Assembly (NCBI GenBank): GCA_964502365.1 | Contig: CAZCWQ010000001.1 | Coordinates: 8,053-72,052 of the forward strand | Length of the DNA: 64,000 nucleotides | Reading direction: 5' to 3' | Origin: an uncultured Desulfobacterales bacterium | GTDB taxonomy: Bacteria; Desulfobacterota; Desulfobacteria; Desulfobacterales; C00003060 | Shown: positions 17,914 to 43,179 of the stretch, piece by piece | How the letters are laid out: each line of letters begins with the position of its first letter | Position numbering within the stretch: the stretch's first letter is position 1 | Made by a program: the position numbers and the translations under genes | The notes under the pieces: model-generated | What the model was told of the DNA's origin: nothing | The model's input: the letters and a program-made list of their open reading frames with translations, nothing else | The model's database searches: none

Positions 17914-19230
17914 TTATCTCTTCCGTTCCGTGTGGCACTGGATGCACAGGTCATAGACAGTGGCAAATGGCATCATCGCAGGCTTGTTCCCTGTGCCGCA
18001 AGCCTTATGACAGCTTAGACACTCCACAGTGAGGTTCCTGTTCCTTTGGTCTACAACCTTTTCACCAATCGGATGTGTTGAGTGGGTCTGCCATTCGTGG
18101 CAACGGCCGCACAGCTCTATGCTGATAGACTCTTGTGAAATGAGCAGGACGTTATCTGAGGCGTGCGGAGAATGGCAGGCGATGCAATTGCCCGTCTTTA
18201 CGGGTTCGCACAACTTCGGGTTCTTGGGATTACTTATTGACCATTTTTGAAGTTCCACTGTATCGGAATGACACCTCCCGCAAAGATCGACAATGGCCCT
18301 CTTTAAGAGTTTCCCCTGCTTGGTGGCGTGGGGCCCATGACAATTCAAACATCCAGTCTGATCCACCAAAGGCCAGTGTGTGCGATTCTGGTTGAGCGTC
18401 TTATCAATCAGTTTCTTGTGACACTGCATGCACAACTCAGTGCCCTGCCATTTGGTCTTCAACGGGTTGGCCGAAGTTGGTTCTTGGTGGCATGCACTAC
18501 ACTGCTGTTTGCTCACAGGAACATGGGCATCGGCGAACACCATGCCCCTATCATTGGAGCCATGGGGGTCATGGCAGGAGCCACAGTTCGTCTTGGCCAC
18601 AGGGTAATTCATGTGCTTCCTGGAAAAAGAAGGTTTGCCCGTGTCATGGCACTCCACACAGAGGGAAGGGGCATCCTTCTTCAATAAGAAATCAGATTTC
18701 TCTGAGGCGTGCGGGTTATGGCAATTGAGGCACCCCTTTTTCGTGTTCAAGGGTTTATGTTTGAACCGGTTCTTCTTGACTTGGTTCCCCATGTCCTGGT
18801 GGCAATCAAAGCAAAGCTCGTTGCCTGTGTTGACCAGCTGAAACTGGTTGTCCGATCCGTGGGGATCGTGGCATTTGTTGCACTTGCCTTCTGCAACAAC
18901 CATATGGACCTTTTGTGCCTTCTCAGGCATCACGTCCTTATGGCAGTTGGAGCAAAGCCTCGTCGGCCCTGCGGTCAACAAGCCCTTGTGAGAAGATGTA
19001 TGAGGCTCATGGCATGCGGAACACTCGCCCCTTTTCATCAGAGGATGTACATAAGGGCTCTTAATCGTTTTTTGAAAGGTCTCATGACATTTCAGGCATA
19101 GTTGCCCTTTGGCCCCCAGCTTGAGTTTGTGTTTGCCCTCTGGGCGAGCACGAGTCGCCATAAGCAAAGTGCTCATGAGGCAGACCAGCAAGACAGTGGC
19201 GCGGCGCAGGTCAAGTTTCAATGGTCTCAT
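17914..19230 (-). CDS. multiheme c-type cytochrome, 16 CXXCH motifs
   Basis: I counted 16 CXXCH motifs. The start at 19230 forms an ATGA overlap with the upstream 26-heme gene stop, followed by a signal/TM segment. Confidence 0.9.
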   Translation of the reverse strand: MRPLKLDLRRATVLLVCLMSTLLMATRARPEGKHKLKLGAKGQLCLKCHETFQKTIKSPYVHPLMKRGECSACHEPHTSSHKGLLTAGPTRLCSNCHKDVMPEKAQKVHMVVAEGKCNKCHDPHGSDNQFQLVNTGNELCFDCHQDMGNQVKKNRFKHKPLNTKKGCLNCHNPHASEKSDFLLKKDAPSLCVECHDTGKPSFSRKHMNYPVAKTNCGSCHDPHGSNDRGMVFADAHVPVSKQQCSACHQEPTSANPLKTKWQGTELCMQCHKKLIDKTLNQNRTHWPLVDQTGCLNCHGPHATKQGKLLKRAIVDLCGRCHSDTVELQKWSISNPKNPKLCEPVKTGNCIACHSPHASDNVLLISQESISIELCGRCHEWQTHSTHPIGEKVVDQRNRNLTVECLSCHKACGTGNKPAMMPFATVYDLCIQCHTERKR

Positions 19231-21329
19231 GGTTTTTCCACTATGTGGCAGTCTACACATATATTGTCGGCAAAAGGCTTATGCATCTCGTCCTTGAAGA
19301 ATTTGGGATACCTTGAAACGTGAGGGGTGTGGCATTTTCTGCAATCCATCACCTTTGCGTCAATACGGATGTGGGCCTCGCCAAAAGAATCCGCGTCATA
19401 GTCGTGGCATTTTCCGCACAAGGGTTGAATCGGTTCCGCGATGAGGGCTAGTTCTGATGAAACATGGGGCAGGTGACATATCTGGCAGTTTTTCAGATCA
19501 GATGGCGCATGCACATAATACTTTATTTCAACGGCCTCGGGAGCAGTATCGCTCTCGCGCGCGGGCACCTCGCCTGGAGGAGTCTGCGCCTCTTTGTCTT
19601 CCGGGTACATTTTCGCTTTCAGTTCGGTATGGCAAGACAGGCACAAGTCAGGAAATGTGGCCAAGAGAAGGCTGTCGAGGTTTGCCTTATGAGGGCTGTG
19701 ACAGGCCGTACATTCCCCAGCCACCACGGGGCCATGTTGACTCTTGACGTCTGCTATTTCTTTGCCGGGGTCTGTGCCGTGGCATGAACGACACAGAAAG
19801 CTTTGCCTATTCACGATCATGCCCGGGATGTTACTTGCGTGGGCATCATGGCATCTTAGGCACTTTCCATCTCTGAAGTATTTGTGGCTGGAACCTCGCA
19901 CCTGCTTCTGCATAAGCTCACCGTGGCAGTTGGCACACAGTTGGGAGGAGGTGGCATCGGCTATCAGCATCTTTTCTCGGTCTGATCCGTGGGAACGATG
20001 GCAGGCGTCACAACTGCCATTGACTACAGGCTTATGGGTATTTGTTTTTGCGAACCGTATTTCAGCATCAAAATGACAGGCGTAACAAACCGTGTCCATC
20101 CTGTCCTTTAACATGCCCTTGAAATTCGACCCGTGGGAATTGTGGCAGGCATTACACATCCTGTCTGAAAAGGGTTGATGTGGGTTGCGGGTTCTCAGAT
20201 CTCTTTTTGTATTCTCATGACACGAGAAACACAGGTCTTCCACTTTTGCAATCAGGAGCTTCTCGTTCCTGGCGGCATGCCTCACATGGCATGAAAGGCA
20301 TCCTCTGTCGCTTGTGAGCGCTTGATGAGAGACCGCCACGGGGACGGCTTTATCGGCATGGCAACCGGCACAGAGTTGGTTGCCCTTCCTGGCAAGGAGG
20401 GTTGGATTTTCTGAGGTGTGGGGATTATGGCAAGAAATACATCGTCCCTTCTGAAAGGGCGAATGCTCGATATGCCCCCCTCCCTTAAGATCTGATGCCT
20501 TATGGCACTCGTGGCAAAGGTCGCTGCCCTTCATGGGCGTCTCAAAGGGTTTCTCGGACGAAGACGGGTTGTGGCATTTTATGCACTCAATGCTGAGAAC
20601 GGGGGGATGGGCACTGGTTCTCAACAGTCTGGGCTGTGATGATGAGTGGGGATTGTGGCAGTTGACACAGAGTGATACCTGTACAGGATAGTCGCCATGT
20701 GCTTTCTTGAATGATCTTTGACCATAGTCATGGCAGGATATGCAAAGGGCCGACTCTTTGTTCTTGAGGAGGTAAGGCTCGTCGGAACTGTGCGACAGGT
20801 GACAGACTTGACAAGGCTCTGTCTGCAATATCTTATGTACCACTTTCTTTTCGTAGCCTTCCCTCTTGTGACACTGGTAGCAAAGGTCGCGGCCTTGGGC
20901 CTTTAAGAGATGGCTTGCCTCGGACGCATGGGGGTCATGGCAGTTGGTGCATTTTCCTCTCTCGAGTCCTGTGTGCACCACGGACTTGTCCATGCCCATT
21001 TGCTTTTTTGTGTGGCACGGATAGCACAACCCCTTTCCCTCTTTCTTAAGTAGCAGCTTTGGGATCTTACCGTGTCTAAGGTGGCAATCTTCGCACTTAT
21101 TCTCCTTCACAACGGAATGAACGTTTTTCATTCCCAGATATTTAGCAGCAAAATCAGTGTGACACTCTACACACGCCTTACGCTCAAACTTGCGCGGTTG
21201 TCGCGAACGGACCGGCGCGCATGCCGAAAAGAAATAGAAAATCCCCGCCAGGACAAGTAGTACTCCCGCCACGACATATTTTCGCTTGCCAAGCATCAAG
21301 ACTCCGCGATCTCTCATTGCCATGGTCAT
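19227..21329 (-). CDS. giant multiheme c-type cytochrome, 26 CXXCH motifs
   Basis: I counted 26 CXXCH motifs in 700 aa. It has an N-terminal hydrophobic anchor ending FFSAC. Confidence 0.9.
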   Translation of the reverse strand: MTMAMRDRGVLMLGKRKYVVAGVLLVLAGIFYFFSACAPVRSRQPRKFERKACVECHTDFAAKYLGMKNVHSVVKENKCEDCHLRHGKIPKLLLKKEGKGLCYPCHTKKQMGMDKSVVHTGLERGKCTNCHDPHASEASHLLKAQGRDLCYQCHKREGYEKKVVHKILQTEPCQVCHLSHSSDEPYLLKNKESALCISCHDYGQRSFKKAHGDYPVQVSLCVNCHNPHSSSQPRLLRTSAHPPVLSIECIKCHNPSSSEKPFETPMKGSDLCHECHKASDLKGGGHIEHSPFQKGRCISCHNPHTSENPTLLARKGNQLCAGCHADKAVPVAVSHQALTSDRGCLSCHVRHAARNEKLLIAKVEDLCFSCHENTKRDLRTRNPHQPFSDRMCNACHNSHGSNFKGMLKDRMDTVCYACHFDAEIRFAKTNTHKPVVNGSCDACHRSHGSDREKMLIADATSSQLCANCHGELMQKQVRGSSHKYFRDGKCLRCHDAHASNIPGMIVNRQSFLCRSCHGTDPGKEIADVKSQHGPVVAGECTACHSPHKANLDSLLLATFPDLCLSCHTELKAKMYPEDKEAQTPPGEVPARESDTAPEAVEIKYYVHAPSDLKNCQICHLPHVSSELALIAEPIQPLCGKCHDYDADSFGEAHIRIDAKVMDCRKCHTPHVSRYPKFFKDEMHKPFADNICVDCHIVEKP

Positions 21330-21344
21330 TACGACTTTACAATC

Positions 21345-23267
21345 CTACGGTTGAAGATCTTCTCGGTGAATCTCTACCGGATAGTACGCTCTGAGTTCGT
21401 CTGCCCAGTGCTCGATCGACGCCTTCATCTTTTCCTTATAAAGGCCCTCTGCAATTTCTTCTTTCACATCTTCAAACGGTTTTGCCTTGGGGGAAATCAC
21501 GGCGGACACGAACAAGACATAGTACAGGCCATCAGGGCTCGCATACAGCCTGAAATCTCCAGAATCGGCCCCTGATACGGCCTTTTGGACTGCTTCGGGC
21601 AATCCCTCCAGGGTCAGCAGCGTCCCATCGAACGGTAGAACCCCGGCCGTGTCCTTGTCAACCTGCCCCGCTGCATTGGAACTCAACCAGTCAAAGTCTG
21701 TGCCTTTGTTCAGCTTCTCCATGGCATCCACGGCCCGACTTCTTTCTTTGAACACGACACTGCGTATTCTCATCATCTGCGGGAACGTGTACTCCTGAAG
21801 ATTGTCGTCATAGCGTTGTTTCAGTTCCTTCTCAGTGAGCTTGATGTCAGGGACAACGACTTTGTTCATGAAGGCGGCAAAGATGACCGAGTTTTCATAC
21901 TCCTTGACTCTCTGTTTATAAATCTCCGTCTCATGAATCCCCTGCTTCAGGGCCTCTTTTTCCAGTACCCGCTTTTGAAGTAGCTCTTCTAAGACCTCGC
22001 CCTTTCTCTTGTTCACTTTCTCCGTTTCGATGGCTCTCTCAACCCCGTGGTAAAATCTCGCTTTCAAACCATTGCTCAAGTCTGCAACGGTAATCGGCGT
22101 TTCTCCTTTTATCTCGGCAACAACTCGCGTGTCTTCCAAGAGGTCTTCGAATCCCGGTTTCTTGGATTCATAGTCAAGGGCATCAAAGATCTTGGCGTTT
22201 ATCTTCACATATTTCTTCTTCAAACCCTCGTAGTAGGCGTTGCCGGCACGAAGTTTCTCCTGTTTAAGGGCTTGGTGCCTTGCCTTTTGCCTTGCCTCCT
22301 GGTTCTCGTCTTTTGGGTAGCGAATACCTTCAAGGCGAAAGAGGATAAACCCTTTGTTCCCAAGTGAAAGGATAGGACTCACAGAGCCGATCTCCATTTT
22401 CGAGACAACCTGGGCCACCGGCAGCGTCAGATCCTTGGCCTTCAAATATCCTGCCTCTTGGTCTCCTTTCGCCACGCTTCGGGCAACGGCGCTGTCAACC
22501 ACCGTGTCAAAGCTCTTGCCTGCCTTTATCTCTTCCTGAATTTGCTTTGCTTCATGTTCCTTTTCAACCGTCACCGACCTTAGCTTCCATTCCTTCACTA
22601 TTTCCTTGTAGAACCGCTGCACTTCCTGCTCATCGGCCTTCACGTCTTTCATTTGCCGTTCAAGCAGAAGCTCGATAAGGCTCTTTACCGCATAGTCAGC
22701 CACAGCGCTTTTCACTTCCGGCAACTCGCCAAGGCCCATCTCTCTGGCCTCAAGCCCAATAAGTTTCATATTGATCATGCGCTTCATAATCGCGGAATAG
22801 TCTATCCGACCTGCCTCTCTTTCCTCCTGCCTTGCCGAGTGTGAGGAGGCAATGGCCCTGTTGAACTCTTCCAAAGTAATTGGTTCTCCGTCCACTGTTG
22901 CCACGACCTCCTTGTTGTCAACCAGGGGAAGTTCCTTGGCTTCGGCAAAGGCCAATGCTGAAGCCAGTAGCAAGCAAGTGGCAACGCACGCGAGCACAGC
23001 CCCTACCCATTGGACGGGACAGCCGGTCTGGTTGCTTTCATGTGTTAAGACGGAGGATAAGCGTCGGTAAAACTCCTTTCGAAATAGCAAGGCATTTGGC
23101 GACATGGTGGGCTGGGTCGGCCTGGCGAAAGCCCTGCCGCCAAGACCAACAGGAAGAACAGGCTTTGCATAGGGTTCCGGAGCAAGCATGTTGAAATGAG
23201 ACGATACCCAGGCTTTTCTTAATAACGGGATGCCCGCCGATTCAGCATTCATCGCATTGTGGCACAC
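21345..23267 (-). CDS. SurA/PpiD-like peptidyl-prolyl isomerase (PpiC/parvulin type)
   Basis: Has a TM/signal segment, a SurA-N-like VATVDGEPITLEEFNRAI and parvulin-like regions. The start is uncertain (GTG 23267, ATG 23252 or ATG 23105). Confidence 0.65.
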   Translation of the reverse strand: MCHNAMNAESAGIPLLRKAWVSSHFNMLAPEPYAKPVLPVGLGGRAFARPTQPTMSPNALLFRKEFYRRLSSVLTHESNQTGCPVQWVGAVLACVATCLLLASALAFAEAKELPLVDNKEVVATVDGEPITLEEFNRAIASSHSARQEEREAGRIDYSAIMKRMINMKLIGLEAREMGLGELPEVKSAVADYAVKSLIELLLERQMKDVKADEQEVQRFYKEIVKEWKLRSVTVEKEHEAKQIQEEIKAGKSFDTVVDSAVARSVAKGDQEAGYLKAKDLTLPVAQVVSKMEIGSVSPILSLGNKGFILFRLEGIRYPKDENQEARQKARHQALKQEKLRAGNAYYEGLKKKYVKINAKIFDALDYESKKPGFEDLLEDTRVVAEIKGETPITVADLSNGLKARFYHGVERAIETEKVNKRKGEVLEELLQKRVLEKEALKQGIHETEIYKQRVKEYENSVIFAAFMNKVVVPDIKLTEKELKQRYDDNLQEYTFPQMMRIRSVVFKERSRAVDAMEKLNKGTDFDWLSSNAAGQVDKDTAGVLPFDGTLLTLEGLPEAVQKAVSGADSGDFRLYASPDGLYYVLFVSAVISPKAKPFEDVKEEIAEGLYKEKMKASIEHWADELRAYYPVEIHREDLQP

Positions 23268-23335
23268 TCAGGTTCCCTTTGCAACTGCAAAACTGCCGGC
23301 TGCCCACAGGGCTCCAACAAGGACAAAAACATTTG

Positions 23336-23698
23336 CTAAAATACCTGTTTTAAAAAAGCCTTGATGTCAGACAGGACAAAGGGCTTGGGGATAAAAACGG
23401 CTCCCTTTTCTTCGATAGTCCTTTTTATTTCATCACCAACAGAACTTGCCGAAATAATGGCGACATTAGTTTCAGGGGATATCTGATGTATTTCGTCCAT
23501 GACATCCAGGCCACTCACATCGGGCAGTCCCAGATCGAGGAAACACACCCAGTAGGATGAGAAGTGCATCTCAATGATGGCATCTCTGCCCGTTGAGGCG
23601 GTTTTGATCTCTCCTTCAAAACCGCACAATTTACGAAGTGCGCCTGACATGCCGGACAGAATAGATGGCTCATCGTCAACGATTAGAATCTTTCTCAT
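23336..23698 (-). CDS. single-domain response regulator (REC only)
   Basis: ILIVDDEPSIL...FLDLGLPDVSG...KPF receiver-domain signature, 120 aa. Confidence 0.85.
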   Translation of the reverse strand: MRKILIVDDEPSILSGMSGALRKLCGFEGEIKTASTGRDAIIEMHFSSYWVCFLDLGLPDVSGLDVMDEIHQISPETNVAIISASSVGDEIKRTIEEKGAVFIPKPFVLSDIKAFLKQVF

Positions 23699-23769
23699 AA
23701 ATCACCTATTTGCCCAAGGGCTTTTTGTTATTCATCAACCCTTAAATGCTTCGCAGTAATCAAGAGGAG

Positions 23770-23784
23770 GCAATTACCATACCA
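23770..23784 (-). promoter_or_regulatory. candidate sigma-54 promoter for the REC-PPIase-cytochrome operon
   Basis: The reverse complement reads TGGTATGGTAATTGC, with GG-N10-GC at canonical spacing. It lies about 70 nt upstream of the REC start. Confidence 0.5.
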
Positions 23785-23942
23785 TGCAAGCTTCACATCC
23801 TTCTGATCTATCCATCCATATTCTTCATTCCCTTGTGTATGCACTGACAGCAAAGCTCACAGAACCAAACTGTTCTTTCCGAGTCCAATATTATCCTACA
23901 TAACCACTGAGCGCTTCAGGCCAATGACTCAATGTCACTCCT

Positions 23943-23977
23943 GGTGAAATCACCGAACAGACCCGGTGAAATCACCG
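23943..23977. promoter_or_regulatory. tandem palindromic upstream activator-like sites
   Basis: GGTGAAATCACCG occurs at 23943-23955 and 23965-23977. Each is the inverted repeat GGTGA-N2-TCACC, and the centres are 22 bp apart. They lie between the two divergent sigma-54 candidates. Confidence 0.55.
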
Positions 23978-24062
23978 CTTCTGCCTCAATCAACTCGCCA
24001 TTGCAGGGCGTCATGATTACCTAACACTTTGATTCGAAACGTGTTTTGTGGGGAAAAATCGA

Positions 24063-24078
24063 TGGCATGTAGATTGCT
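24063..24078 (+). promoter_or_regulatory. sigma-54 promoter for the NHL-omcS operon
   Basis: TGGCATGTAGATTGCT matches TGGCAC-N5-TTGCW at every conserved position except one. It lies 140 nt upstream of the NHL gene. Confidence 0.65.
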
Positions 24079-24217
24079 ATTCCTACTAAACAAATATGAA
24101 ATACAAAGGGAGATATTTGATCAATGTAGCCGTTGAAAAGAACCTGGCCTGTATCTGCCAATGTTGGAGGACAGCAGGTGCTTATGGTCCTCCACGCAAT
24201 GGCGAAGAGAAGCATAA

Positions 24218-25201
24218 ATGAGAAACCGACAAAATAAGATTGAATTACTCATTGGGCTGCGCCTTAAACGCATGATCGTTGTATGCCTTGCGAGTACAAT
24301 TTTCTGCGCAGGCATGTTCACTGGCGCGTCAGCACAAGTGGAACCGGTCTTTTTATACACTCTGTCCAACTTTGATGGTCCCATACCGTACAACTGGGCG
24401 AACATTTATTTTGACGAACAGAGAAACGAGATTTATGTGGTGGACAGGCGTGAGGGGGACATAAGGATATTCGATCAAAACGGCATGGAAATCCACCGTT
24501 TTGGTGACGATGGAAGGCTGGGCACTCTCATCGATGTTGCCGTTCGAAACGATGGAAACATCTTTGTTGTGTCCAGACAGGGGTTGAAGCCCTCAGTCCT
24601 TCTCTGTGATTTCAGAGGAGAGCCTCTGTCAGCACTCGAGTTCAGGAACTTCCCTCCCGATTTTTCGGTTTTTTCACCCGACCGCATCGCTTACCTGAAA
24701 GAACGGCTCTACCTGCTTGACACCATCTCCTTGAGGATAGCGATTACAGAAACCAACGGCCTTTTCCGGAACGGTTATGACGTCGTGTCTCTCCTGGGCC
24801 TCGAAGAAAAAAAGAGGGGAGAGGCGGACATCGGCGGATTCAGCGTTGACCGGGAAGGAAACATGCTCTTTACCATCCCGGTCCTCTTTTCAGCCTACAT
24901 ACTCTCTCCGGACGGGCAGATACAGGGCTTTGGCGGGCCCGGAAGCGCTCCTGGGGGGTTTGGCGTTGTAGGGGATATCGTGGCAGATGAAAGAGGCTAT
25001 TACTATGTGGCAGACCGGTTGAAATGTGTTGTCGATATTTTTGACAAGGATTTCCAGTTTCAGTCCGAGTTCGGGCATCGCGGATTCAGGCCGGAGAATC
25101 TTATAGGTCCCAAAAATCTGGTTCTGGATGCCGAGGGCAGGCTCTATGTGTCTCAGCTCGCGAGCAGAGGGGTCAGTGTTTTTAGGATAACCTATGACTA
25201 A
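24218..25201 (+). CDS. NHL-repeat beta-propeller protein
   Basis: Signal peptide present. Repeated blades such as YVVDRREGDIRIFD, YYYVADRLKCVVDIFD and LYVSQLASRGVSVF. Confidence 0.75.
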   Translation: MRNRQNKIELLIGLRLKRMIVVCLASTIFCAGMFTGASAQVEPVFLYTLSNFDGPIPYNWANIYFDEQRNEIYVVDRREGDIRIFDQNGMEIHRFGDDGRLGTLIDVAVRNDGNIFVVSRQGLKPSVLLCDFRGEPLSALEFRNFPPDFSVFSPDRIAYLKERLYLLDTISLRIAITETNGLFRNGYDVVSLLGLEEKKRGEADIGGFSVDREGNMLFTIPVLFSAYILSPDGQIQGFGGPGSAPGGFGVVGDIVADERGYYYVADRLKCVVDIFDKDFQFQSEFGHRGFRPENLIGPKNLVLDAEGRLYVSQLASRGVSVFRITYD

Positions 25202-25415
25202 TCTCAAACAACAGAGGCGCATAATTCTAAAGAGTAAGGAGGTGATCACAAGTAAGAAGTGATTAGCGTTTTCAGGGTGACCTAATGGGTACGGGCGAAC
25301 CACGAAGAACAGAGGCACATTGATTCGAAAGATGCGGAGGGGATTAGAAACATAAAGTGAAGAGATGGAAGATGAAGGGTCACAAAATCAAACATGAAAA
25401 GGAGGAAACTGAAAA

Positions 25416-26600
25416 ATGAAAACTACTAAGTTACTGGTTATCATGGCAGCAGTCCTGATAGCCGTTGGGTTAGGTGGCTCTGCCATGGCTTTCCATGACG
25501 GCGGTGTTGCACACTGCGACGGCTGCCACTCAATGCACCAGCAGGTGGACGGCGCGTCCAACCTTAGCGGGAATGCAAACAATAACCTGACCACAGGTTC
25601 AGACCCAAGCTCCACCTGTCTCAACTGCCATGCAGGAAGTGGAAGCTACCATATTCTGAGCGCAGATGGCACCAATTTTTACCCAGGTGGTGACTTCTAC
25701 TGGGTCACGGCAGGGTTATGGACGGTGGACCACGACACGGACAGCACGGACTCAAATCGCGGCCACAACATCACGGCCTTGGACTTTGGCCTTGGGGACG
25801 ATGGCAGACTGAATGTGGCTCCTGGTGGTACCTACCCCGATACCCAGCTGGGATGTAACAGCTGCCATGATCCTCACGCTAAAGTGGGCGGGGCTGGCGT
25901 AGGCCCCGGCGCACCAAACCCTGCGCCGATTTCAGGCTCCGGGTCATACGGTGACCCAGACCCTACGGATGGCTCTATCCTGGGTAACTATAGACTCCTT
26001 GGCGGTATCGGTTACGACGGTGGTCAGGGTGCAAGCGCCAACTTCGCCAATGCTGCTCCCATCGCTACGGCGCCAGCCTTTGGCTTTGCCCCCGGTAGTG
26101 TCGGCTTGACTGAGCGCGACGATAATCACGTAGACTACGGGTCAGGCATGTCGGGATGGTGTGGAAACTGTCATACCAGCTTCTTCTCAGGCGCCCACGT
26201 GCACCCGGTTGACACGGCTGCAACCCTGGGCGTGGAGGCCACTAATTACAATCACTACATCTCCACAGGCAACTTTGATACTTCAAGAACCGCCACAAGC
26301 GCAACCTACCTGGCGCTGGTGCCTTTTGAGAGAGGCACACCGGACAGAACACTCCTGTTGCCGACCAATACGGACGGTCCTGATGTTAATTCGCAGGTCA
26401 TGTGTCTGACATGCCACAGGGCTCATGCCTCACCATTCAAGCACATTGCCAGGTGGGATCTGAATACGGAGCTGCTGGCAGAGTCCAATGCAAACGCACC
26501 AGTGGCAGTGCAAGCCGTGCAATACTACGAAAGAGACATTGCAACCGACTTCGGCCCATGGCAAAGATCGCTGTGCAACAAGTGCCACGTGCAAGACTAG
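25416..26600 (+). CDS. omcS: OmcS-family hexaheme nanowire-type cytochrome
   Basis: Strong RBS (AAAGGAGGAAA), signal peptide ...AMA|FHDGGVAHCDGCHSMH and six CXXCH motifs. Blocks PGGDFYWV, APGGTYP..LGCNSCHDPH, YRLLGG, SGMSGWCGNCH, CLTCHRAHAS and a C-terminal CNKCHVQD parallel G. sulfurreducens OmcS as I recall its sequence. Confidence 0.85.
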   Translation: MKTTKLLVIMAAVLIAVGLGGSAMAFHDGGVAHCDGCHSMHQQVDGASNLSGNANNNLTTGSDPSSTCLNCHAGSGSYHILSADGTNFYPGGDFYWVTAGLWTVDHDTDSTDSNRGHNITALDFGLGDDGRLNVAPGGTYPDTQLGCNSCHDPHAKVGGAGVGPGAPNPAPISGSGSYGDPDPTDGSILGNYRLLGGIGYDGGQGASANFANAAPIATAPAFGFAPGSVGLTERDDNHVDYGSGMSGWCGNCHTSFFSGAHVHPVDTAATLGVEATNYNHYISTGNFDTSRTATSATYLALVPFERGTPDRTLLLPTNTDGPDVNSQVMCLTCHRAHASPFKHIARWDLNTELLAESNANAPVAVQAVQYYERDIATDFGPWQRSLCNKCHVQD

Positions 26601-26626
26601 TCTAAACTGTCGTGTAACCCTATTTT

Positions 26627-26660
26627 AAGGCTGAGGGCCCATGCCCTCAGCCTTTTTTTT
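26627..26660 (+). terminator. strong rho-independent terminator after omcS-like gene
   Basis: AAGGCTGAGGGC-CCAT-GCCCTCAGCCTT forms a 12-bp perfect stem followed by T6-8. Confidence 0.85.
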
Positions 26661-26810
26661 GACGGATTGACACCTTTGTGCTTAAAGAGGACAGAAGGGC
26701 CCTGATATAACCACCCAACAGCCCAGAAAGATTGTTCATATGGCAAGTGCGTGATACATAGTGGCACCTCCATCAGAGTGGAAGTAGTCGCGTCATGTGA
26801 GGAACGGCCT

Positions 26811-28223
26811 ATGATGGCACCAAGGATCTTTCCCCTCCTTCTTCTCCTCTCGTTTGTTTTGGGCAGCTGTTTTCCGCAAGGCTCCCTACATAACGTACGC
26901 TCAATGGACGAGGGTCACGTTATTTTGTATCTACAGCCTCTATCCCAGGAGGCATACAGGCTCCGGTTCGTTATCGGCGAGATTTCAGCCATCCGGGACG
27001 ACGGCACTCTGATTCCCCTCTTTCTGTCAATCAATGAGATAAAGGGAACAGGTCTTGTGGCTATCCAGAAACGGCTGGCATCAGGGGGATTGCCTCCCGG
27101 TTCATACACAGGGCTGTCCATCAGGATCAAGGACGCATTTGTGCAGGGGGAAGAAGGCGAATTTGCTTTGTTAGTCCCTGAAGAACCCACCAGGGTTGAC
27201 AGTCTGTTCAACGTGACCCGGAGAAAAACAGCCATCCTGTTTCTTTCCTTCCATGTTGCAGGAGCCATAACCGATCAGGTCCGTTTTACACCTGCTTTTT
27301 CCCTGAAACCCTCTGCCAGAGAGCTCCTCAATCTTACAGGATACGTCAGTGATCCTGCCTCCGACAGCCTCTTGGTCTTTAACAAGAAGACGATGCAGGT
27401 GGTCGGTGCCATATCAACCGGCACGGCACCCAAGGGGATCGCCCTCGACAGAAATAGGGGAAGGGCTTACGTGGCTGCTTATGAAGACGATACCGTGGAA
27501 GTCATCGATGTCATCGAAGGGGAGATTATTGGCAGGATACCACTTAACTTTGGTGATGGGCCGCTGGAGCTCGCGGTGGCCCCAGATGGAAGAACCCTCG
27601 TGTCAGTGAACCATGACTCCAATACGGTGAGTATCATTGATACGGTCTCTTTGTTTGAGATCAGGAGGGTCAGGGTTGCTGAAGGGCCCTCTTCGGCCGT
27701 GGTGGATCCTCCAGGCCTGAAAGCCTACGTTATGAGCCCTCTGGCCAATTCGGTCTCTGTGGTGGATCTGACGCAAAGTGAGGCTTCCGCAACTATAGCA
27801 GTCGAAGGCGGCCCTCTTAGAGGTGCTTTCAATCGCGAGGGCGATACGCTTTATGTTGTGAGCAGGGATTCACCCTACCTGACGGTCATAGATGCCTCAC
27901 GGTTGGTCATCACACAGAGGATTTTCATAGGCATTGGGGCCCTGTCCATAAAAGTGGACACGCAGACCGATCTCATCCTTGTGGGCATGAAGGCGGGGGG
28001 GAACATCCTGGTGATTGACGCTTTCGCTTCCATGGCCATCGATGCCATCGTACTGGAAGGCAATGCCGCTTACCTGACTATCGACGACGAAGAGAACAGT
28101 CTGTTTGTGGCCCTTCCGGACATCAAGTCTCTTCAGAAGGTCAATCTCACGAGTAAGAAGATTACGGGCGCCATAGACGTGGGCGAGGAGGCTTATGCAG
28201 TTGTCGTCGTGCGTGAGAGATAG
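26811..28223 (+). CDS. lipoprotein with DUF4382-like N-terminal domain and YVTN-type beta-propeller
   Basis: Start MMAPRIFPLLLLLSFVLGSC has a lipobox. The N-terminal half resembles the DUF4382 protein at 56673. The C-terminal half has repeated P.G(I/L)A(L/V)....(A/L)YV....D..V.VID YVTN-like blades. Confidence 0.7.
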   Translation: MMAPRIFPLLLLLSFVLGSCFPQGSLHNVRSMDEGHVILYLQPLSQEAYRLRFVIGEISAIRDDGTLIPLFLSINEIKGTGLVAIQKRLASGGLPPGSYTGLSIRIKDAFVQGEEGEFALLVPEEPTRVDSLFNVTRRKTAILFLSFHVAGAITDQVRFTPAFSLKPSARELLNLTGYVSDPASDSLLVFNKKTMQVVGAISTGTAPKGIALDRNRGRAYVAAYEDDTVEVIDVIEGEIIGRIPLNFGDGPLELAVAPDGRTLVSVNHDSNTVSIIDTVSLFEIRRVRVAEGPSSAVVDPPGLKAYVMSPLANSVSVVDLTQSEASATIAVEGGPLRGAFNREGDTLYVVSRDSPYLTVIDASRLVITQRIFIGIGALSIKVDTQTDLILVGMKAGGNILVIDAFASMAIDAIVLEGNAAYLTIDDEENSLFVALPDIKSLQKVNLTSKKITGAIDVGEEAYAVVVVRER

Positions 28224-28226
28224 CCG

Positions 28227-30401
28227 ATGAATGCGGTCCGTTCGCCAGCTGTGTGCCTGTTTTCGATTATCGTTATCTCCAGTGCCCTTTGGCCACCAAA
28301 CATTTGGGCCGAAGGGATCAACTTCCGTAGTGAATTCACCTACAGAGATTCCGACACCAAAACCACGAACAAGGTCACCGGCGAAGTGACCGAGAGTGAG
28401 TACTCAGCATTTAGGCAGTGGTACAACCTGGACCTATTCAGGACCATTTATCCCTACCTGACGTTAAGGGGCGGAAGCATTCTTGAGCTTAACGATTCTA
28501 TGTCCTCTTCTCAAGACACAGAAACCAAGACGGAGGAACAAACCCTTCGTCCATTCGCAGAAATCAACCTGAACAATCCGATTTACAAGGCTGGAATCGG
28601 ATACCGCGGGACCCAAATAGAAAGAGATACAACAGGGATTCCCACCACAAAGGACCTGAGAGACGAATTCAGTACCCTTTTCGGGTGGAGGCCTACGGAT
28701 TTCCCCGAGATGAACGTTCGCTATACCCATACCCATACTTATGACCATCCGGAGACCGTGGATACCATCGATAAACTGCTTACCTATGATGCCCGATATA
28801 CCGCATGGGAAGAACTTCGGATGAGCTATCTCTATATCCGAAATGAGAGACAAGAGCTTATCGACCCTTCCGAGACCTTGAGGCAAACGCATACCGGCAG
28901 GGTCGACTATTCACACAGTTTTTTCGGAAAACGCCTCTCTATGGGAACGGGTTACAGAATTCGTCATGACACTTTGGAGTTTCCCACATTGGCGACTTTG
29001 GAGTCTCCAGTGTTGCGCTCAGTAGGACTTTCGGCACTTGACGACACCCCCACCGACGGACCGGCCCTTGATCCAAATCTTGGCCTCATAGACGGGGATG
29101 TTGCCACGTCAGCCGGTCTGGATATCGGGTTGGCTGGCGATGAAACGACCCTGACAAACCTCGGGCTCGATTTTGGATTTCCCGTCTCTATGGATAAGCT
29201 GTATGTTTGGGTGAGCAGGCGTCTTTCCTCATCGGTCTCCAATGCTTTTTCCTGGTCTGTTTATACCAGCCCGGACAATACCGACGTGAGCACATGGTCG
29301 CTTGTGGCTACAGTTTCTCCTGCCTCGTTTGGGGCTCTTGACAATCGTTTTGAGATATCCGTTCCTGCGGTAAATACGCGCTTTATCAAGCTTGCAGTGA
29401 GGCCACTGTCTCCCATCGTGCCGGACGCTGCCAACTTTTCTAATATCTTTATTACAGAGATACAGGCGTTCAGCACGCAGTCAGGGGTGTCGTTGCAGAC
29501 GAAAGACACTACTGTGGACCACGACTACAACTTCAACCTGACGGGCAGGCTCAGCACGCACACCGTACTCGGCTATAATCTGTATTACAGCCTCCAGGAG
29601 CGGGACCCATCTGCTGAAAAAAGAACGCGCCTTTCTAATGACATCTTTCTTAAGCATACCTTCAACGAAATCTTTTCCGCCAGCACAAGTGTGTCACAAA
29701 CAGACACGAAGCTGACGGACCAGGAAACTCACACGTACACGTATGCCGCTTCGCTCAATGCCGACCATCTGGACACCTTCGGACAGACGCTGACGTACAG
29801 CGGCACGGATGAAACCCAAGACAATGATTCGGGCGATACGAATTCCGTCTTCCTTCGCAATAATGCAAAATTGTATAAGGGTTGGAGCGCCTTCTTCGAT
29901 GTGGGATACAGTTGGAACAAACCTTTGAACTCGGCCCGGACAACCTCCACAATCATAAGATCAGGGACAGACATAGAACCGAACGAAAAGCTTAACATCA
30001 ATATGAACTACTCCGTTACTGACACAAAACAAGCGGAGGAGGACGGGAGAGACACGTCCAGATCTTCACTGGATCTGCAAGCCTTCTTTCTGCCCTGTAC
30101 AACGTTGTCCCTTTTTGCCAGATTGAGCGTGCAGGACAGGGGGGGCTCCAGAACCACGCTGCAGGACTATTCCGTCAGCTGGTCACCTTTTCCTGACGGT
30201 ACCCTACAGTTTCTTCTCGGGTATACCGAGACCCTTAGGCCGGAGGACGAACAAAAGGACAGGACCATAAGCCCGAGTCTGAAATGGACCATAGGAAGGC
30301 ACATCCTCGCGGATATGTCCTACACCATTGCCACAAGCGAGACCGAGTTGCAGACAATCGATTCGAATAGTCTCAATATCAATGTGAAGCTCATTTTTTA
30401 G
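28227..30401 (+). CDS. predicted outer-membrane beta-barrel protein with internal discoidin (F5/8 type C)-like domain
   Basis: Signal peptide (...NIWAEG). Alternating-hydrophobic, Y/T/S-rich strands flank the insert, and the C-terminus is ...NINVKLIF with an aromatic last residue. The central ~150 aa reads GLIDGD...WSVYTSPDN...RFIKLAVRP...FITEIQAF. Confidence 0.6.
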   Translation: MNAVRSPAVCLFSIIVISSALWPPNIWAEGINFRSEFTYRDSDTKTTNKVTGEVTESEYSAFRQWYNLDLFRTIYPYLTLRGGSILELNDSMSSSQDTETKTEEQTLRPFAEINLNNPIYKAGIGYRGTQIERDTTGIPTTKDLRDEFSTLFGWRPTDFPEMNVRYTHTHTYDHPETVDTIDKLLTYDARYTAWEELRMSYLYIRNERQELIDPSETLRQTHTGRVDYSHSFFGKRLSMGTGYRIRHDTLEFPTLATLESPVLRSVGLSALDDTPTDGPALDPNLGLIDGDVATSAGLDIGLAGDETTLTNLGLDFGFPVSMDKLYVWVSRRLSSSVSNAFSWSVYTSPDNTDVSTWSLVATVSPASFGALDNRFEISVPAVNTRFIKLAVRPLSPIVPDAANFSNIFITEIQAFSTQSGVSLQTKDTTVDHDYNFNLTGRLSTHTVLGYNLYYSLQERDPSAEKRTRLSNDIFLKHTFNEIFSASTSVSQTDTKLTDQETHTYTYAASLNADHLDTFGQTLTYSGTDETQDNDSGDTNSVFLRNNAKLYKGWSAFFDVGYSWNKPLNSARTTSTIIRSGTDIEPNEKLNINMNYSVTDTKQAEEDGRDTSRSSLDLQAFFLPCTTLSLFARLSVQDRGGSRTTLQDYSVSWSPFPDGTLQFLLGYTETLRPEDEQKDRTISPSLKWTIGRHILADMSYTIATSETELQTIDSNSLNINVKLIF

Positions 30402-30592
30402 GTTACCGTGAAGGTCGTGACAAGTGGGCGCTCGAAACCGTCTGTGGCCGTTCCCAGACGACATCCGGTCCGTGGCAAGTGGGTTCGCAAGTTGACTGGC
30501 ATGGCCAAATGGTTTATATGGTGTTAAAAAGATAAGAGATTCACAGAAGACAAAATAGCGATACATCACCCTCTAAGGCAAGGAATTCTGCC

Positions 30593-31186
30593 ATGATTGG
30601 ATCGAAACGCGGTGTGAGTCTAATGAGATGTGTCTTGCCTTGCCTTTATCTTTCCTTGACCGCCTGTGCCGCCCCCCCTCCGCCCACCACGTATCATGAC
30701 CCGGATATGGATTTTGCGTCATTGCGCAGCGTTGCAGTCATGCCTTTTGAGAATCTCTCGCGAGACAAGCTTGCGGCGGAAAGGGTGCGAGACACCTTCA
30801 TTAACAACCTCTTGGCTACCACTTCGCTTTATGTCATCCCTCCCGGCGAGGTCGCACGGGGCAGCACAAGATTAGCGCTTGATAAGCCTGCTACGCCATC
30901 CGCGGAGGACATCTTAAAACTGGCCGTTATCATCAAGGCAGACGCTGTCATCACCGGCGTTGTCAGGGAGTACGGAGAGATAAGATCCGGGACCACATCT
31001 GCCAATGTTATATCCATCAGCGTGCAAATGTATGAGGTGCAAACGGGAACGGTGGTGTGGGCAGCATCGTCTTCGCAGGGCGGGATAAGCACATGGGATC
31101 GACTTTTTGGGGGCGGAGGCAAGCCGATGAACGATGTCACCGAAGCGGCTGTGGATGATATTATCAATAAACTCTTCAGCAAGTAA
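30593..31186 (+). CDS. CsgG/LpoB/DUF799-like lipoprotein
   Basis: Lipobox LSLTAC. SVAVMPFENLS...ADAVITGVV pattern is typical of the TolB-N/CsgG/LpoB-like fold family. Confidence 0.6.
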   Translation: MIGSKRGVSLMRCVLPCLYLSLTACAAPPPPTTYHDPDMDFASLRSVAVMPFENLSRDKLAAERVRDTFINNLLATTSLYVIPPGEVARGSTRLALDKPATPSAEDILKLAVIIKADAVITGVVREYGEIRSGTTSANVISISVQMYEVQTGTVVWAASSSQGGISTWDRLFGGGGKPMNDVTEAAVDDIINKLFSK

Positions 31187-32297
31187 ATATCTTATCACCC
31201 TTTTCACGGTTCTTATTATCCTCTGGGGTTGTGGAACGGTGAACGACCCTGTGAGAAGCGTGACGAGTGATTCCCCTGTGCATAGACCGCTCCGCGTGGC
31301 TTTTCTGCCGGTCGACAACCTTAGTGGAGGTCCTGCCCCCCTTAAGCATATCAGAGACTCCCTGTCAGACGGTTTCAAGAAACAAGGGATAACTCCCGTT
31401 GATGAGGCAGCACTTGAGAAATTTATTGCTGGGCACCGTGTCCGTTATGTAGGCGGTATGAACAGGGCCACCGCACAGGCCTTCCGAACAGAGATCTCTG
31501 CTGAAGCGGTCCTGATCACATCGCTGGAGCTCTATAGTGAGAGTGCTCCCCCCAGGATTGCTTTCACATGCAGATTGGTTTCTACGGCAGACGACACCGC
31601 AATTTTGTGGATGGATGGCATAGGGCTGGCAGGTGATGACTCTCCGGGAATTCTCGGTCTTTCTCTGATTGAAGATCCCCAGAGCCTTCTTGACGAGGCA
31701 GTGCGATACCTCGCCCTTTCTCTGTCGGCACATCTAGGAGACGGGGGCACGATGGCCACCCCCAAAAGAAGAGACAAATTTCAGCCGAAATTTTTTTACA
31801 GGTCCCCTGTGATGGCCACCGACAGACGTTACCGTGTGGCTGTCATGCCATTTTTCAATGTAAGTGAGAGAAAATACGCCGGCGAGATCATGGCCCTCCA
31901 CTTTGTCAAGGAACTCAGGCCACTCGAGAATTTTGCCGTTGTCGAGCCAGGTGTCGTAAGAGATACGCTGCTGGCACTCAGGGTCATCATGGACGATGGT
32001 CTATCCCTCGCCTACGCAGATCTCATTTTCGGCAGACTTAACGCCGATCTTATTCTTACGGGTAACGTACTGGATTATGAAGACTATCGTGGTCCCGCCG
32101 GGAAACCCAAGGTCGGTTTCTCAGCCATGCTGCTGGAGAAGAAGAGCCGGGAAGTGGTCTGGACCTGCCAGAATTATAATGAGGGGGACAACGGGGTCTT
32201 CTTCTTCGACCTAGGGAAGGTAAACACAGCCAACGCCATGGCATCCGAGATGGTACGTCTTGCCGTGGAAACAATGGCGAGGGAAGGCGGAAGGTGA
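31134..32297 (+). CDS. lipoprotein with two CsgG/LpoB/DUF799-like domains
   Basis: Lipobox ILWGC. Two copies of the same pattern (RVAFLPVDNLS... and RVAVMPFFNVS...ADLILTGNV). The start is uncertain (31134 or 31155) and overlaps the previous gene end. Confidence 0.6.
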   Translation: MSPKRLWMILSINSSASKYLITLFTVLIILWGCGTVNDPVRSVTSDSPVHRPLRVAFLPVDNLSGGPAPLKHIRDSLSDGFKKQGITPVDEAALEKFIAGHRVRYVGGMNRATAQAFRTEISAEAVLITSLELYSESAPPRIAFTCRLVSTADDTAILWMDGIGLAGDDSPGILGLSLIEDPQSLLDEAVRYLALSLSAHLGDGGTMATPKRRDKFQPKFFYRSPVMATDRRYRVAVMPFFNVSERKYAGEIMALHFVKELRPLENFAVVEPGVVRDTLLALRVIMDDGLSLAYADLIFGRLNADLILTGNVLDYEDYRGPAGKPKVGFSAMLLEKKSREVVWTCQNYNEGDNGVFFFDLGKVNTANAMASEMVRLAVETMAREGGR

Positions 32298-32306
32298 TAT
32301 TGGTAG

Positions 32307-33701
32307 CTAATCCAGGCCAAATTTTTTCAATTGGTATCTGAGACTGTCATAGCTTACGCCAAGAAGTTTTGCTGCCTGCGCCTTGTTGTTCCCGGTCCTT
32401 TCTAGAGCCTGAATGATGAGGTCCTTTTCCAATTCTTCCAGAGAGATCCCCGATTCAGGTAAAACAAAACGGTCGCTCGATGGTTGGACTGCTCCCATAG
32501 TACGTCCAAACATCCAGCTCGGCATTTGTTCAGGCTCGATTATTTCATTATCTTCCAGCACCACAAACCGCTCCACCAAATTTTTCAACTCCCTTACATT
32601 CCCCGGCCAGCCGTGAGCGCTCAGGACTTGCTCAGCGGCAGGTGAAAACCCTTTGATGGTTCTTTTGTTATACTTTGTGGCAAAATAAGAGAGGAAATGC
32701 CCGGCCAGTAGGGGTATGTCTTCTTTTCTCTCTCTGAGCGGAGGGATGTGGATATAGAATGGGCTCAGTCTGAAAAACAAGGCTTTCCGAAATTCGCCTT
32801 TTTCCACTGCCTCTGAGAGGTTTCTGCTTGTGCTAGCAATGGCTGTTAGGTCTACGGGGATTTCTTTGTTTCCGCCTATTCGTCTCACTGTCCTGTTTTC
32901 TAATATCCTTAACAATTTGCTTTGAAGCCCTGGTTGCATATCGCCTATCTCATCAAGGAGTATCACTCCTCCTTTGGCCTGCTCAAACAACCCCTTTTTG
33001 TCAGATTTAGCATCTGTAAAGGCACCCTTCTCGTGACCAAAGAGTTCGCTTTCCAAAAGTGTGGCAGGCATCGCTGCGCAATTGATTGAAACAAAGGGGG
33101 CATGATGTGATGGCGTACGGCCAAACATGAGATTGTGAATATATCGGGCAACGACTTCCTTGCCTGTTCCACTTTCTCCGGTAATGAGAATGGCAGATAC
33201 GTGGGCTTTAGCGATCTTTTGCACAGTCGCCTTTATTTCATGAATGGCCCCAGATTCGCCGATAAAATCCTTTTCTATGACCTCAGCATAGGCCTTCCTG
33301 AGATAGTTTACTTCTTGCCTAAGACTTTCTTTCTCGAGGACACTGTCCAAGACAATCTTGACCTCATCAGTATTAAAAGGCTTGGTGATATAGTCCACAG
33401 CCCCGAGCTTCATGGCTTTCACTGCGGTTTCTGCAGTTTCGTCAGCTGTCAGCATGACGACCTGAGTGTCGATAGGATTTTTCCCGCTCTTAATGTCTCG
33501 CAGGATATCTATGCCGTCTCGCCCAGGAAGGCTGATATCAAGCATAACCACATCCGGATCCCATGAGCTGATTCTATCAATGACATCGTTCGGATCAGAC
33601 TCTAAGTATATTTCGTAGCCCTCTTCCTTCAGTGCCTTCGATAGGACTGTGAGAATGAGCTCATCATCATCCAAAATAAACAATTTGCCCTTGCTTTTCA
33701 T
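32307..33701 (-). CDS. sigma-54-dependent response regulator (NtrC family)
   Basis: REC domain (DISLPGRDG), an AAA+ domain with GESGTGKE and the sigma-54 contact loop GAFTDA, and a C-terminal Fis-type HTH. It has an ATGA overlap with the upstream kinase gene. Confidence 0.9.
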   Translation of the reverse strand: MKSKGKLFILDDDELILTVLSKALKEEGYEIYLESDPNDVIDRISSWDPDVVMLDISLPGRDGIDILRDIKSGKNPIDTQVVMLTADETAETAVKAMKLGAVDYITKPFNTDEVKIVLDSVLEKESLRQEVNYLRKAYAEVIEKDFIGESGAIHEIKATVQKIAKAHVSAILITGESGTGKEVVARYIHNLMFGRTPSHHAPFVSINCAAMPATLLESELFGHEKGAFTDAKSDKKGLFEQAKGGVILLDEIGDMQPGLQSKLLRILENRTVRRIGGNKEIPVDLTAIASTSRNLSEAVEKGEFRKALFFRLSPFYIHIPPLRERKEDIPLLAGHFLSYFATKYNKRTIKGFSPAAEQVLSAHGWPGNVRELKNLVERFVVLEDNEIIEPEQMPSWMFGRTMGAVQPSSDRFVLPESGISLEELEKDLIIQALERTGNNKAQAAKLLGVSYDSLRYQLKKFGLD

Positions 33702-38013: not shown

Positions 38014-38090
38014 AGTGCTCAGAGCCGGGTGGCCACGTTTCATGCCTATTGTTTGGAACACCCTGGTTGATACGGACATAGGGCCGCTGT

Positions 38091-38891: not shown

Positions 38892-38918
38892 TTTCAGATA
38901 TTGTTCCTATTTCCAGAA

Positions 38919-39674: not shown

Positions 39675-39702
39675 TTTAGCGGCCTTTCAAAGGAGGGGGC
39701 GA

Positions 39703-40863: not shown

Positions 40864-40940
40864 GGATTCTATCTTTGTCCCAACTTCGCCTTTTTCCCAA
40901 GGCTGGATGGCCGAGTAATTGCTAGTAGTATCGTTTATAA

Positions 40941-40955
40941 TCAATGTCTGTGCCA
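40941..40955 (-). promoter_or_regulatory. candidate sigma-54-type promoter for the Cbc-like operon
   Basis: The reverse complement reads TGGCACAGACATTGA. The -24 box is perfect, but the -12 box is TTGA instead of TTGC. Confidence 0.4.
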
Positions 40956-41025
40956 GAATATTCCTATACGCCTGGACACATGGAAATCCAATGGGTTACA
41001 TGATTTAAGCTGTCTTCTTGAATGA

Positions 41026-41077
41026 TGAAATCAAAGAAATTTTGGTCAAAACACCATATGAAATCGGTCATTTCACC
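41026..41077. promoter_or_regulatory. cluster of TGAAATC-type sites related to the 23.9 kb palindromes
   Basis: TGAAATC occurs at 41026-41032 and 41059-41065. GGTCATTTCACC at 41066-41077 has reverse complement GGTGAAATGACC, an 11/12 match to GGTGAAATCACC. Confidence 0.35.
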
Positions 41078-41224
41078 ACACGGTCTATGACTTTTTCCTT
41101 ACACCCTGTGCCGTTGACAAATTGACAGAACTGGCCCATGATACTCAAATAATTCTGAACTATACACAAGACCAAGGCAAACCCGCAGGCCTTATGTTGG
41201 TTAAGAGGTCTCGTTTTTTGAAGA

Positions 41225-42169: not shown

Positions 42170-42183
42170 TTCATCATAGCACC

Positions 42184-43170: not shown

Positions 43171-43179
43171 AGAAACACC

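Follow-up and report, generated by a model that had tools for sequence, protein, structure and literature searches.

A candidate bidirectional sigma-54 control region with paired activator boxes between OmcS-type and multihaem cytochrome operons of an uncultured Desulfobacterales bacterium

Divergent sigma-54 promoters with activator sites between them are known from Escherichia coli, at zraP/zraSR (ZraR) and at hyc/hyp (FhlA). Divergent sigma-54 promoters sharing activator sites have also been described in Desulfovibrio vulgaris, for DVU2106 and DVUA0100 (PMC4641369). In Geobacter sulfurreducens, BccR (GSU0598) activates the sigma-54 cbcBA operon, which encodes a receiver, a b-type cytochrome and a multihaem c-type cytochrome (bioRxiv 10.1101/2021.04.15.440034), and the omcS cluster of the same organism adjoins a sigma-54 activator and a histidine kinase, GSU2506/GSU2507 (PMC10599522; PMC13194489), whose reported effects concern omcB and pilA. 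The main text of Leang 2009 does not mention GSU2503-2506, and neither a promoter nor a binding site is reported for these genes in the papers that do mention them. How the decision is taken to build cytochrome nanowires or other machinery of extracellular electron transfer is poorly known even in Geobacter, and the papers searched had nothing on such regulation in uncultured sediment lineages, the carriers of most OmcS-type clusters. Here we describe a 64-kb stretch of DNA from an uncultured Desulfobacterales bacterium (64,000 nucleotides, analysed as a whole and called the window), in which a 520-bp intergenic region separates an operon for an NHL-like protein and an OmcS homologue (NHL-OmcS) from a divergent operon for a receiver (REC), a PPIase and multihaem cytochromes. 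Judged from its sequence elements and their relatives, this region probably acts as a bidirectional sigma-54 control region, the boxes of which would be bound by the NtrC-type activator encoded at 33701-32307.

A sequence-only reading of the window had placed two divergent sigma-54 promoters around a single tandem palindromic activator site, and on re-reading 23500-24400 the coordinates of all four elements proved exact to the base (Table 1). Both copies of the 13-mer GGTGAAATCACCG contain GGTGA-AA-TCACC, as expected from the inverted repeat GGTGA-N2-TCACC assigned to them, and their start-to-start spacing is 22 bp. The 12-mer GGTGAAATCACC occurs exactly twice in the whole window, as this 22-bp-spaced pair. 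With up to two mismatches the box is found 14 times against 6.8 expected, which is only a mild enrichment, and the sigma-54 consensus with up to two mismatches is found 34 times against 38 expected, which is no enrichment; the site at 24063 is the sole intergenic match in the window with at most one mismatch and with both GG and GC kept. Since matches to the relaxed consensus sequences are barely enriched or not at all, pattern matching inside the window is weak evidence, and the decisive statistics are those from related loci. No sigma-70-like promoter was found in 23300-24500.

The plus promoter fits 11 of the 12 positions of TGGCACG-N4-TTGCW. Scanning a genome collection with an alignment of NHL-like proteins yielded 71 loci, 68 of them with usable upstream DNA, which span Desulfobacteraceae, Desulfobulbaceae, Nitrospirota, Thermodesulfovibrionia, Acidobacteriota, Myxococcota and others; the nearest genomes are metagenome-assembled genomes of Desulfobacteraceae or 'Deltaproteobacteria', with identities of at most 63%. 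A TGGCAY-N5-TTGC-type element (sense strand, at most 280 bp from the NHL gene start, GG-N10-GC, at least 8/10 consensus positions) lies upstream of the NHL gene in 58/68 loci, where the background rate predicts about 4, a 16-fold excess. The almost perfect promoter upstream of the NHL-omcS operon is thus borne out by its retention at orthologous positions. Four Geobacteraceae loci (L016, L019, L020 and L022) have neither boxes nor a good sigma-54 element 5' of the NHL gene.

Transcription from the plus promoter would start near 24089, leaving a 5' untranslated region of about 129 nt. Cyclic-dinucleotide riboswitches occur upstream of Geobacter cytochrome genes; such a riboswitch in the 129-nt leader was rejected for want of an Rfam match, and no Rfam RNA family matched anywhere in 20000-36000 at E values up to 1. 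The leader of the NHL gene holds a GGAGGAC...GUCCUCC hairpin at 24160-24195, with a marginal folding z of -2.0.

Anchored on the plus promoter, the relatives show two boxes some 95-125 bp upstream, set 21-23 bp apart throughout the related sites. In 1.15 Mb, comprising the window and the genome loci, a search allowing up to 4 mismatches and spacings of 21-23 bp found only 29 pairs, about 22 of which lie 5' of the NHL gene. The consensus of the pair reads GGTGAAATCACC-GAAYnnnnCY-GGTnATTTCACC, and the 34-bp site can also be written GGTGAAATCACC-N10-GGTnWTTTCACC. As a rule box 2 carries the reverse complement of the box 1 sequence, which makes the entire 34-bp site palindromic. The tandem identical boxes proposed at the outset therefore stand for the window itself, where the two identical copies are a minor variant departing from the palindromic pattern at two central bases only, whereas for most relatives the description has to be amended to an inverted pair. 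Extra pairs were seen in two loci, one in L002 (5784-5817), where it separates the PPIase gene from the cytochrome genes of the divergent operon, and one in L029 (11119-11152), 5' of a second receiver gene.

A metagenome scan with the pattern GGTGAAATCACC-N10-GGTNWWWTCACC, blind to promoters and genes, matched 100 stretches where we estimate about 0.2 by chance. The box-promoter statistics rest on 80 loci from these 100 stretches; 55 of the 80 have a canonical sigma-54 element at 90-215 bp from the box centre (4.6 for random centres), and 70 have one when A is allowed at -12 (GA). The distances from box centre to promoter cluster at 105, 116-117, 130, 138 and 176-186 bp, and the arrangement met most often has a TGGCATNCTCATTGC-type promoter 116-117 bp to one side of the boxes and TGGTATGGTAATTGC some 180 bp to the other. 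In the window the box centre lies 116 bp from the -12 G of the plus promoter, the modal distance in the metagenome loci, and 189 bp from that of the minus promoter, so that dyad-symmetric repeats stand at enhancer distance (about 80-200 bp) from both. Promoter conservation and the fixed box-promoter distances in relatives support divergent sigma-54 promoters with one shared site, and repeated dyads whose geometry is fixed in dozens of metagenome loci agree with the layout of an enhancer-binding-protein site, both of which had been proposed from the window alone. Of 101 unique box-to-promoter spacers, 26 have the IHF-like motif of the window, in the same orientation, beginning 40-42 bp 5' of the promoter (0.8 in shuffles). 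With such a site between boxes and promoter, enhancer, bend and -24/-12 element follow one another on the plus side in the classical tripartite manner; the minus side showed no IHF-like site. About 10 of the metagenome matches are unrelated multi-copy 22-bp tandem arrays, and iteron-like arrays of the 12-mer with no sigma-54 link were noted at L102 4613-4700, L133 3950-4060 and L128 10650-10730.

The protein encoded at 33701-32307 is the only activator encoded in the 64-kb window. In the PDB it is matched best by full-length NtrC-family proteins such as 4l4u, and ZraR (1ojl) also ranks among the top matches; its database names are all generic. It is co-encoded with a histidine kinase and a periplasmic binding protein that matches PtxB (E = 2.5e-37), ArrX (3e-19) and AioX (6e-16), which makes up a three-component set of PtxB-like binding protein, kinase and sigma-54 activator; the same gene trio is present in L035, L067, L068, L117, L141, L147 and L148. 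The upstream DNA of the sensor operon in 16 loci contains no boxes, and sigma-54-like matches there only in L141 and L042; autoregulation of this operon was rejected on the absence of boxes.

Orthologues of the activator are 56-70% identical, and all carry G[A/S]FTDA together with a near-identical helix-turn-helix, NK.QAAKLL.ISYDSLRYQ.KK. They adjoin the cluster in 15 genome loci and, in 12 metagenome loci, lie within 1-2 kb of exact box pairs, mostly accompanied by the kinase and the binding protein. Among the 14 orthologue-bearing (group-A) genome loci with upstream sequence, the box pair is present in 8, and three more have single boxes. By contrast, in nine loci with another activator type (38-45% identity; L012, L013, L018, L031, L032, L036, L045, L047 and L050), encoded immediately 5' on the same strand and with the loop GAFTGA as read in L036 and L050, the sigma-54 promoter is kept but boxes are found in none. 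The difference between 8/14 and 0/9 has a hypergeometric probability of about 0.006 by our own estimate, and the contrast acts as a natural swap experiment, one that tracks the boxes to the lineage of GAFTDA orthologues. Desulfobulbaceae activators (51-52% identity) go with variant boxes, GGGCAAATCCCC. This orthologue-box linkage, with the absence of boxes beside the other activator type, favours the NtrC-family protein named as candidate regulator by the sequence-only reading. Loci with the other activator carry different upstream repeats, for example GAATCCACAGAGGTGCGGGATA in L012 and L013, and the Desulfobulbaceae loci L038, L039, L043, L067 and L068 show GGGCAAATCCCC and GGCAAAATAGCC at 22-bp spacing, mostly as three boxes.

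Several observations tell against a control region of this kind served by this activator. Three of the 14 orthologue-bearing loci have single boxes in place of a pair, and three others (L007, L024 and L026) have degenerate boxes only. In L001-L004, L008, L010 and L034 boxes are present but the activator gene lies outside the examined stretch, so that linkage to it is at best presumptive in these loci. Kinship among many of the metagenome loci inflates their counts as a measure of independent evidence. Half-sites of the same box stand about 7-8 bp apart, tighter than in classical NtrC sites, which makes the binding stoichiometry uncertain. The minus promoter fits only 9 of the 12 positions of TGGCACG-N4-TTGCW, and rpoN is not encoded in the 64-kb window. 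The loop of the activator reads GAFTDA (window 33026-33043) and so departs from the canonical GAFTGA. VfmH, another GAFTDA protein, was not seen to interact with sigma-54, and the significance of its loop is left unresolved (PMC10714721); on the other side, GAFTDA is listed as compatible with activation and occurs in DVU2106, by which two divergent sigma-54 operons are co-regulated (PMC4641369).

The strongest rival accepts promoters and boxes as real but has the boxes bound by some other enhancer-binding protein, with its gene at another place in the genome. The distance of 8 kb between activator gene and site speaks for it, as do the seven loci above, which show boxes with no orthologue visible in the examined DNA, and the large number of activators that such bacteria encode, 37 in D. 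vulgaris (PMC4641369). We nonetheless consider this explanation unlikely, given that the candidate is without competitor in the window, that its orthologues stand beside the cluster and close to exact pairs, that boxes are missing where the activator type differs, and that the helix-turn-helix is strongly conserved wherever boxes occur.

The minus promoter, GG-N10-GC ahead of the REC-PPIase-cytochrome operon, was found again as first described, and would give a transcription start near 23758 and a 5' untranslated region of about 60 nt. Its consensus in relatives is TGG[T/C]A[T/C]NNNAATTGC, and it is conserved 5' of REC or PPIase genes: it stands 5' of the receiver gene in L011, L024, L027, L037, L043, L067 and L068 and directly 5' of the PPIase in L004, L010 and L066, with TGGTATGGTAATTGC or near variants 5' of REC or PPIase genes also in L017 and L029. 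The 15-mer recurs almost letter for letter in other lineages, and in more than 20 metagenome loci a minus-type promoter lies 176-186 bp from the box centre, compared with 189 bp in the window. These data bear on a second alternative, in which only the plus promoter works, TGGTATGGTAATTGC resembles a promoter without functioning as one, and another promoter serves the REC-PPIase-cytochrome operon. In its favour are the imperfect consensus fit, the 189 bp to the boxes with no IHF-like site in between, and the close relatives L001, L002, L003 and L034, which are without a minus promoter. A look-alike would not be expected to remain nearly unchanged across lineages ahead of different genes (REC, PPIase and CYT314) at so narrow a range of distances from the boxes, and no sigma-70-like promoter was found in the region to replace it, so that we regard this alternative as improbable, slightly more so than a different activator.

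Short palindromes between divergent genes are typical of operators, and the tight half-site spacing would also suit a third explanation, in which the boxes serve a conventional repressor or activator, or the divergently encoded receiver, on sigma-70 promoters; a sigma-70-like sequence, TTGACA-17-CATGAT, does lie just 3' of the boxes at a second site in the window (see below). At the main site no sigma-70-like promoter was found, the boxes stand at fixed distances of 100-190 bp from the -24/-12 elements and do not overlap them, and no other transcription factor gene travels with the boxes. The receiver was rejected as the box binder because it has no DNA-binding domain, being REC only in the window and REC-PilZ in relatives. 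An operator function is accordingly very improbable. Last, the idea that the repeat is a chance duplication, a 22-bp iteron or a tandem-repeat element without a role in transcription draws on the roughly 10 metagenome matches in unrelated contexts (L102, L133 and L128 among them), but is effectively refuted by the comparison of related sequences, as the window has exactly two copies between cytochrome operons and not an array of at least three near a replication gene, and as different phyla keep the pair at the orthologous position, flanked by sigma-54 elements at fixed distances.

The shared box site is not unique in the window, for a second box pair lies at 41044-41077 between two further cytochrome operons. 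On its left, at about 118 bp from the centre of the pair, is a sigma-54-like promoter with A for C at -12 (TTGAT), a substitution kept in orthologous context in L085 and L115. A TTGAT-type promoter with a box pair also precedes the gene for a 971-aa membrane dCache-PAS-sigma-54 activator (GAFTGA) in at least 12 further loci (L083 2037-4952, L138 1702 leftwards, L080, L087, L093, L095, L105, L129, L135, L144, L149 and L151), and an activator driven from boxes in this way suggests a two-tier regulatory cascade. A CYT386-cyt b operon beside a CYT314-NHL-CYT832 operon, as at the second site, is also the setting in which the exact motif is most often found in metagenomes. For the right-hand operon, which encodes a cytochrome, an NHL protein and an 832-aa cytochrome, TGGTATGGTAATTGC serves as the promoter in about 22 metagenome loci; no GG-N10-GC element was found ahead of it in the window (41078-41225), where the sigma-70-like TTGACA-17-CATGAT is located at 41114-41142. 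A plus-strand TGGCCGAGTAATTGCT at 40908-40923 was judged spurious as its promoter because it faces the boxes from the wrong side, overlaps the leader of the conserved leftward promoter and has no counterpart in relatives. The surrounding DNA (window 37078-45678) is dense in multihaem cytochrome genes (311, 266, 386, 314 and 832 aa) and also encodes a second NHL protein (42184-43170) and cytochrome b561.

The genes behind box-linked promoters encode almost exclusively multihaem cytochromes, a porin-like protein or the second activator. Exact box pairs stand ahead of genes for a porin-like protein and, after it, for multihaem cytochromes of periplasmic and of large extracellular type (L090 1739-3697; L142 299-4436), a gene set that looks like a porin-cytochrome conduit. 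Because boxes precede such conduits and other multihaem cytochromes in relatives, the system looks like a switch for extracellular electron transfer. In its widest form, to which we attach slightly less than even weight, the proposal is that the PtxB-like protein, the kinase and the GAFTDA activator constitute a cross-phylum master switch for extracellular electron transfer that works through one 34-bp enhancer motif, and partly through a natural promoter class with A in place of the near-invariant C at -12, on modules comprising the OmcS nanowire assembly genes, porin-cytochrome conduits, an inner-membrane cytochrome bc, a REC(-PilZ) feedback protein and a second-tier membrane activator.

The two operons that flank the main site are labelled NHL-omcS and REC-PPIase-cytochrome, names that Pfam, NHL-bearing homologues and the match to PDB 6ef8 uphold (Table 1). 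After its second beta-propeller, operon 1 encodes a 724-aa protein, a lipoprotein and a 387-aa protein, and all 71 loci have the series NHL, OmcS, beta-propeller, 724-aa protein, lipoprotein and 387-aa protein, so that an OmcS homologue is accompanied by the conserved companions of an OmcS nanowire (osc) cluster. The name osc is reportedly due to Shen et al. 2025. In relatives the PPIase and the multihaem cytochromes are either divergent from the OmcS cluster or downstream of it. The first gene of operon 2 encodes REC-PilZ (221-229 aa) in L011 8291-8956, L027 8855-9535, L037 5333-6001 and L043 2148-2837, and the presence of REC only in the window hints that a cyclic-di-GMP link has been lost or separated here. 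As a conserved member of the regulon, the stand-alone receiver may, speculatively, serve as a phosphate sink or an output link; a feedback role is likewise conjectural.

Table 1. Positions in the window of the control elements and of the genes discussed.
Feature	Position	Strand	Details
Sigma-54 type plus promoter, TGGCATGTAGATTGCT = TGGCATG-TAGA-TTGCT	24063-24078	+	GG 24064-65, GC 24076-77, 10 bp between
Sigma-54 type minus promoter, TGGTATGGTAATTGC = TGGTATG-GTAA-TTGC	23784-23770	-	GG-N10-GC
Activator box 1, GGTGAAATCACC	23943-23954		13-mer GGTGAAATCACCG extends to 23955
Activator box 2, GGTGAAATCACC	23965-23976		13-mer GGTGAAATCACCG extends to 23977; 22 bp from box 1
IHF-like site, TAACACTTTGATT	24022-24034	+	fits YAANNNNTTGATW; begins 41 bp 5' of plus-promoter TGG
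Target operon 1 (omcS-companion type cluster)	24218-32297	+	gene order kept in ~70 loci
NHL-like beta-propeller, 327 aa	24218-25201	+	homologues with NHL repeats
OmcS homologue	25416-26600	+	PDB 6ef8, E = 8e-63
Beta-propeller	26751-28223	+	
Target operon 2	17914-23698	-	Pfam; synteny in relatives
Stand-alone receiver (REC), 120 aa	23698-23336	-	
SurA-like PPIase	23267-21345	-	
Multihaem cytochromes, two	21329-19227, 19260-17914	-	
Candidate sensor-regulator operon	36888-32307	-	three genes
PtxB/AioX-like periplasmic binding protein	36888-35908	-	Pfam Phosphonate-bd
HAMP-PAS-PAS histidine kinase	35908-33698	-	
NtrC-type activator, REC + Sigma54_activat + HTH_8	33701-32307	-	Pfam
Second box pair, GGTCAAAACACC-N10-GGTCATTTCACC	41044-41077		between two cytochrome operons
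Sigma-54-like promoter, TGGCACAGACATTGAT = TGGCAC-AGACA-TTGAT	40955-40940	-	~118 bp from second box-pair centre
Cytochrome c / cytochrome b561 / cytochrome c operon	40863-38091	-	read from 40955-40940 promoter

The elements are conserved, keep a fixed geometry and are linked to the activator gene; from this we infer a course of signalling, binding and looping whose steps are drawn from established knowledge of NtrC-type activators. The PtxB/AioX-like periplasmic binding protein would probably report its ligand to the HAMP-PAS kinase, which would phosphorylate the receiver domain of the 33701-32307 activator. The activator, as two dimers, would then occupy the boxes at 23943-23954 and 23965-23976, which lie on the same face of the helix because they are 22 bp apart, and form an active ATPase ring. 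DNA looping, assisted on the plus side by an IHF-type bend at 24022-24034, would deliver this ring to closed sigma-54 holoenzymes waiting at 24063-24078 (116 bp from the box centre) and 23784-23770 (189 bp), and ATP hydrolysis would open both promoters. Because one shared enhancer would open both, we propose that the NHL-OmcS and REC-PPIase-multihaem cytochrome operons are induced together. The same activator would also act at 41044-41077 on the cytochrome bc-type operon.

The mechanism is classical; regulon, motif and sensor have apparently not been described before. A literature search on the motif, the activator lineage and sigma-54 control of OmcS-type clusters, with Shen et al. 2025 lying outside it, found no description, and a search for the motif string returned primers only. 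Sequence comparison apparently reveals a conserved regulon of extracellular-electron-transfer genes in many uncultured sediment bacteria, marked by the same boxes. The region supplies a testable regulatory code, consisting of a 34-bp motif, a promoter geometry, a named candidate activator and a candidate sensor. The periplasmic binding protein of the sensor could be screened for ligands, and if its proposed role is true, the inducing signal would be directly identifiable. The motif could be used to predict co-regulated electron-transfer genes in metagenomes, and the locus offers an inducible sigma-54 cassette for the expression of nanowire genes. The conserved TTGAT variant at -12 may bear on how the closed sigma-54 complex stays silent.

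Compared with described systems, the region resembles zraP/zraSR in having two divergent sigma-54 promoters with sites between them, and ZraR is likewise an NtrC-type REC-AAA+-HTH_8 protein. It differs from both zraP/zraSR and hyc/hyp in box sequence, targets and signal, in the separate periplasmic binding protein of its sensor, and in that the activator operon is not among the divergent units. The DVU2106/orp operons share with it a GAFTDA activator serving two divergent sigma-54 operons from a common upstream region (Fievet et al. 2011, cited in PMC4641369); DVU2106, however, is a one-component regulator with cell-division and orange-protein targets and no cytochrome regulon. BccR, a REC-AAA+-HTH activator, and cbcBA recall the second site of the window as well as the REC gene at the first, but BccR is divergent from its target, and the available part of that preprint reports no binding site or omcS link (bioRxiv 10.1101/2021.04.15.440034). 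The regulators beside omcS in G. sulfurreducens, a PAS-containing activator (GSU2506) and a Cache/HAMP kinase (GSU2507), are unlike the window sensor in architecture. The sensor resembles AioXSR and ArrX-type systems, where genes for a PtxB-like binding protein, a kinase and a sigma-54 activator likewise occur together; the binding protein of the window, however, best matches phosphite/phosphonate binders and not arsenic sensors, and the candidate targets are cytochrome and nanowire genes, not arsenite oxidase.

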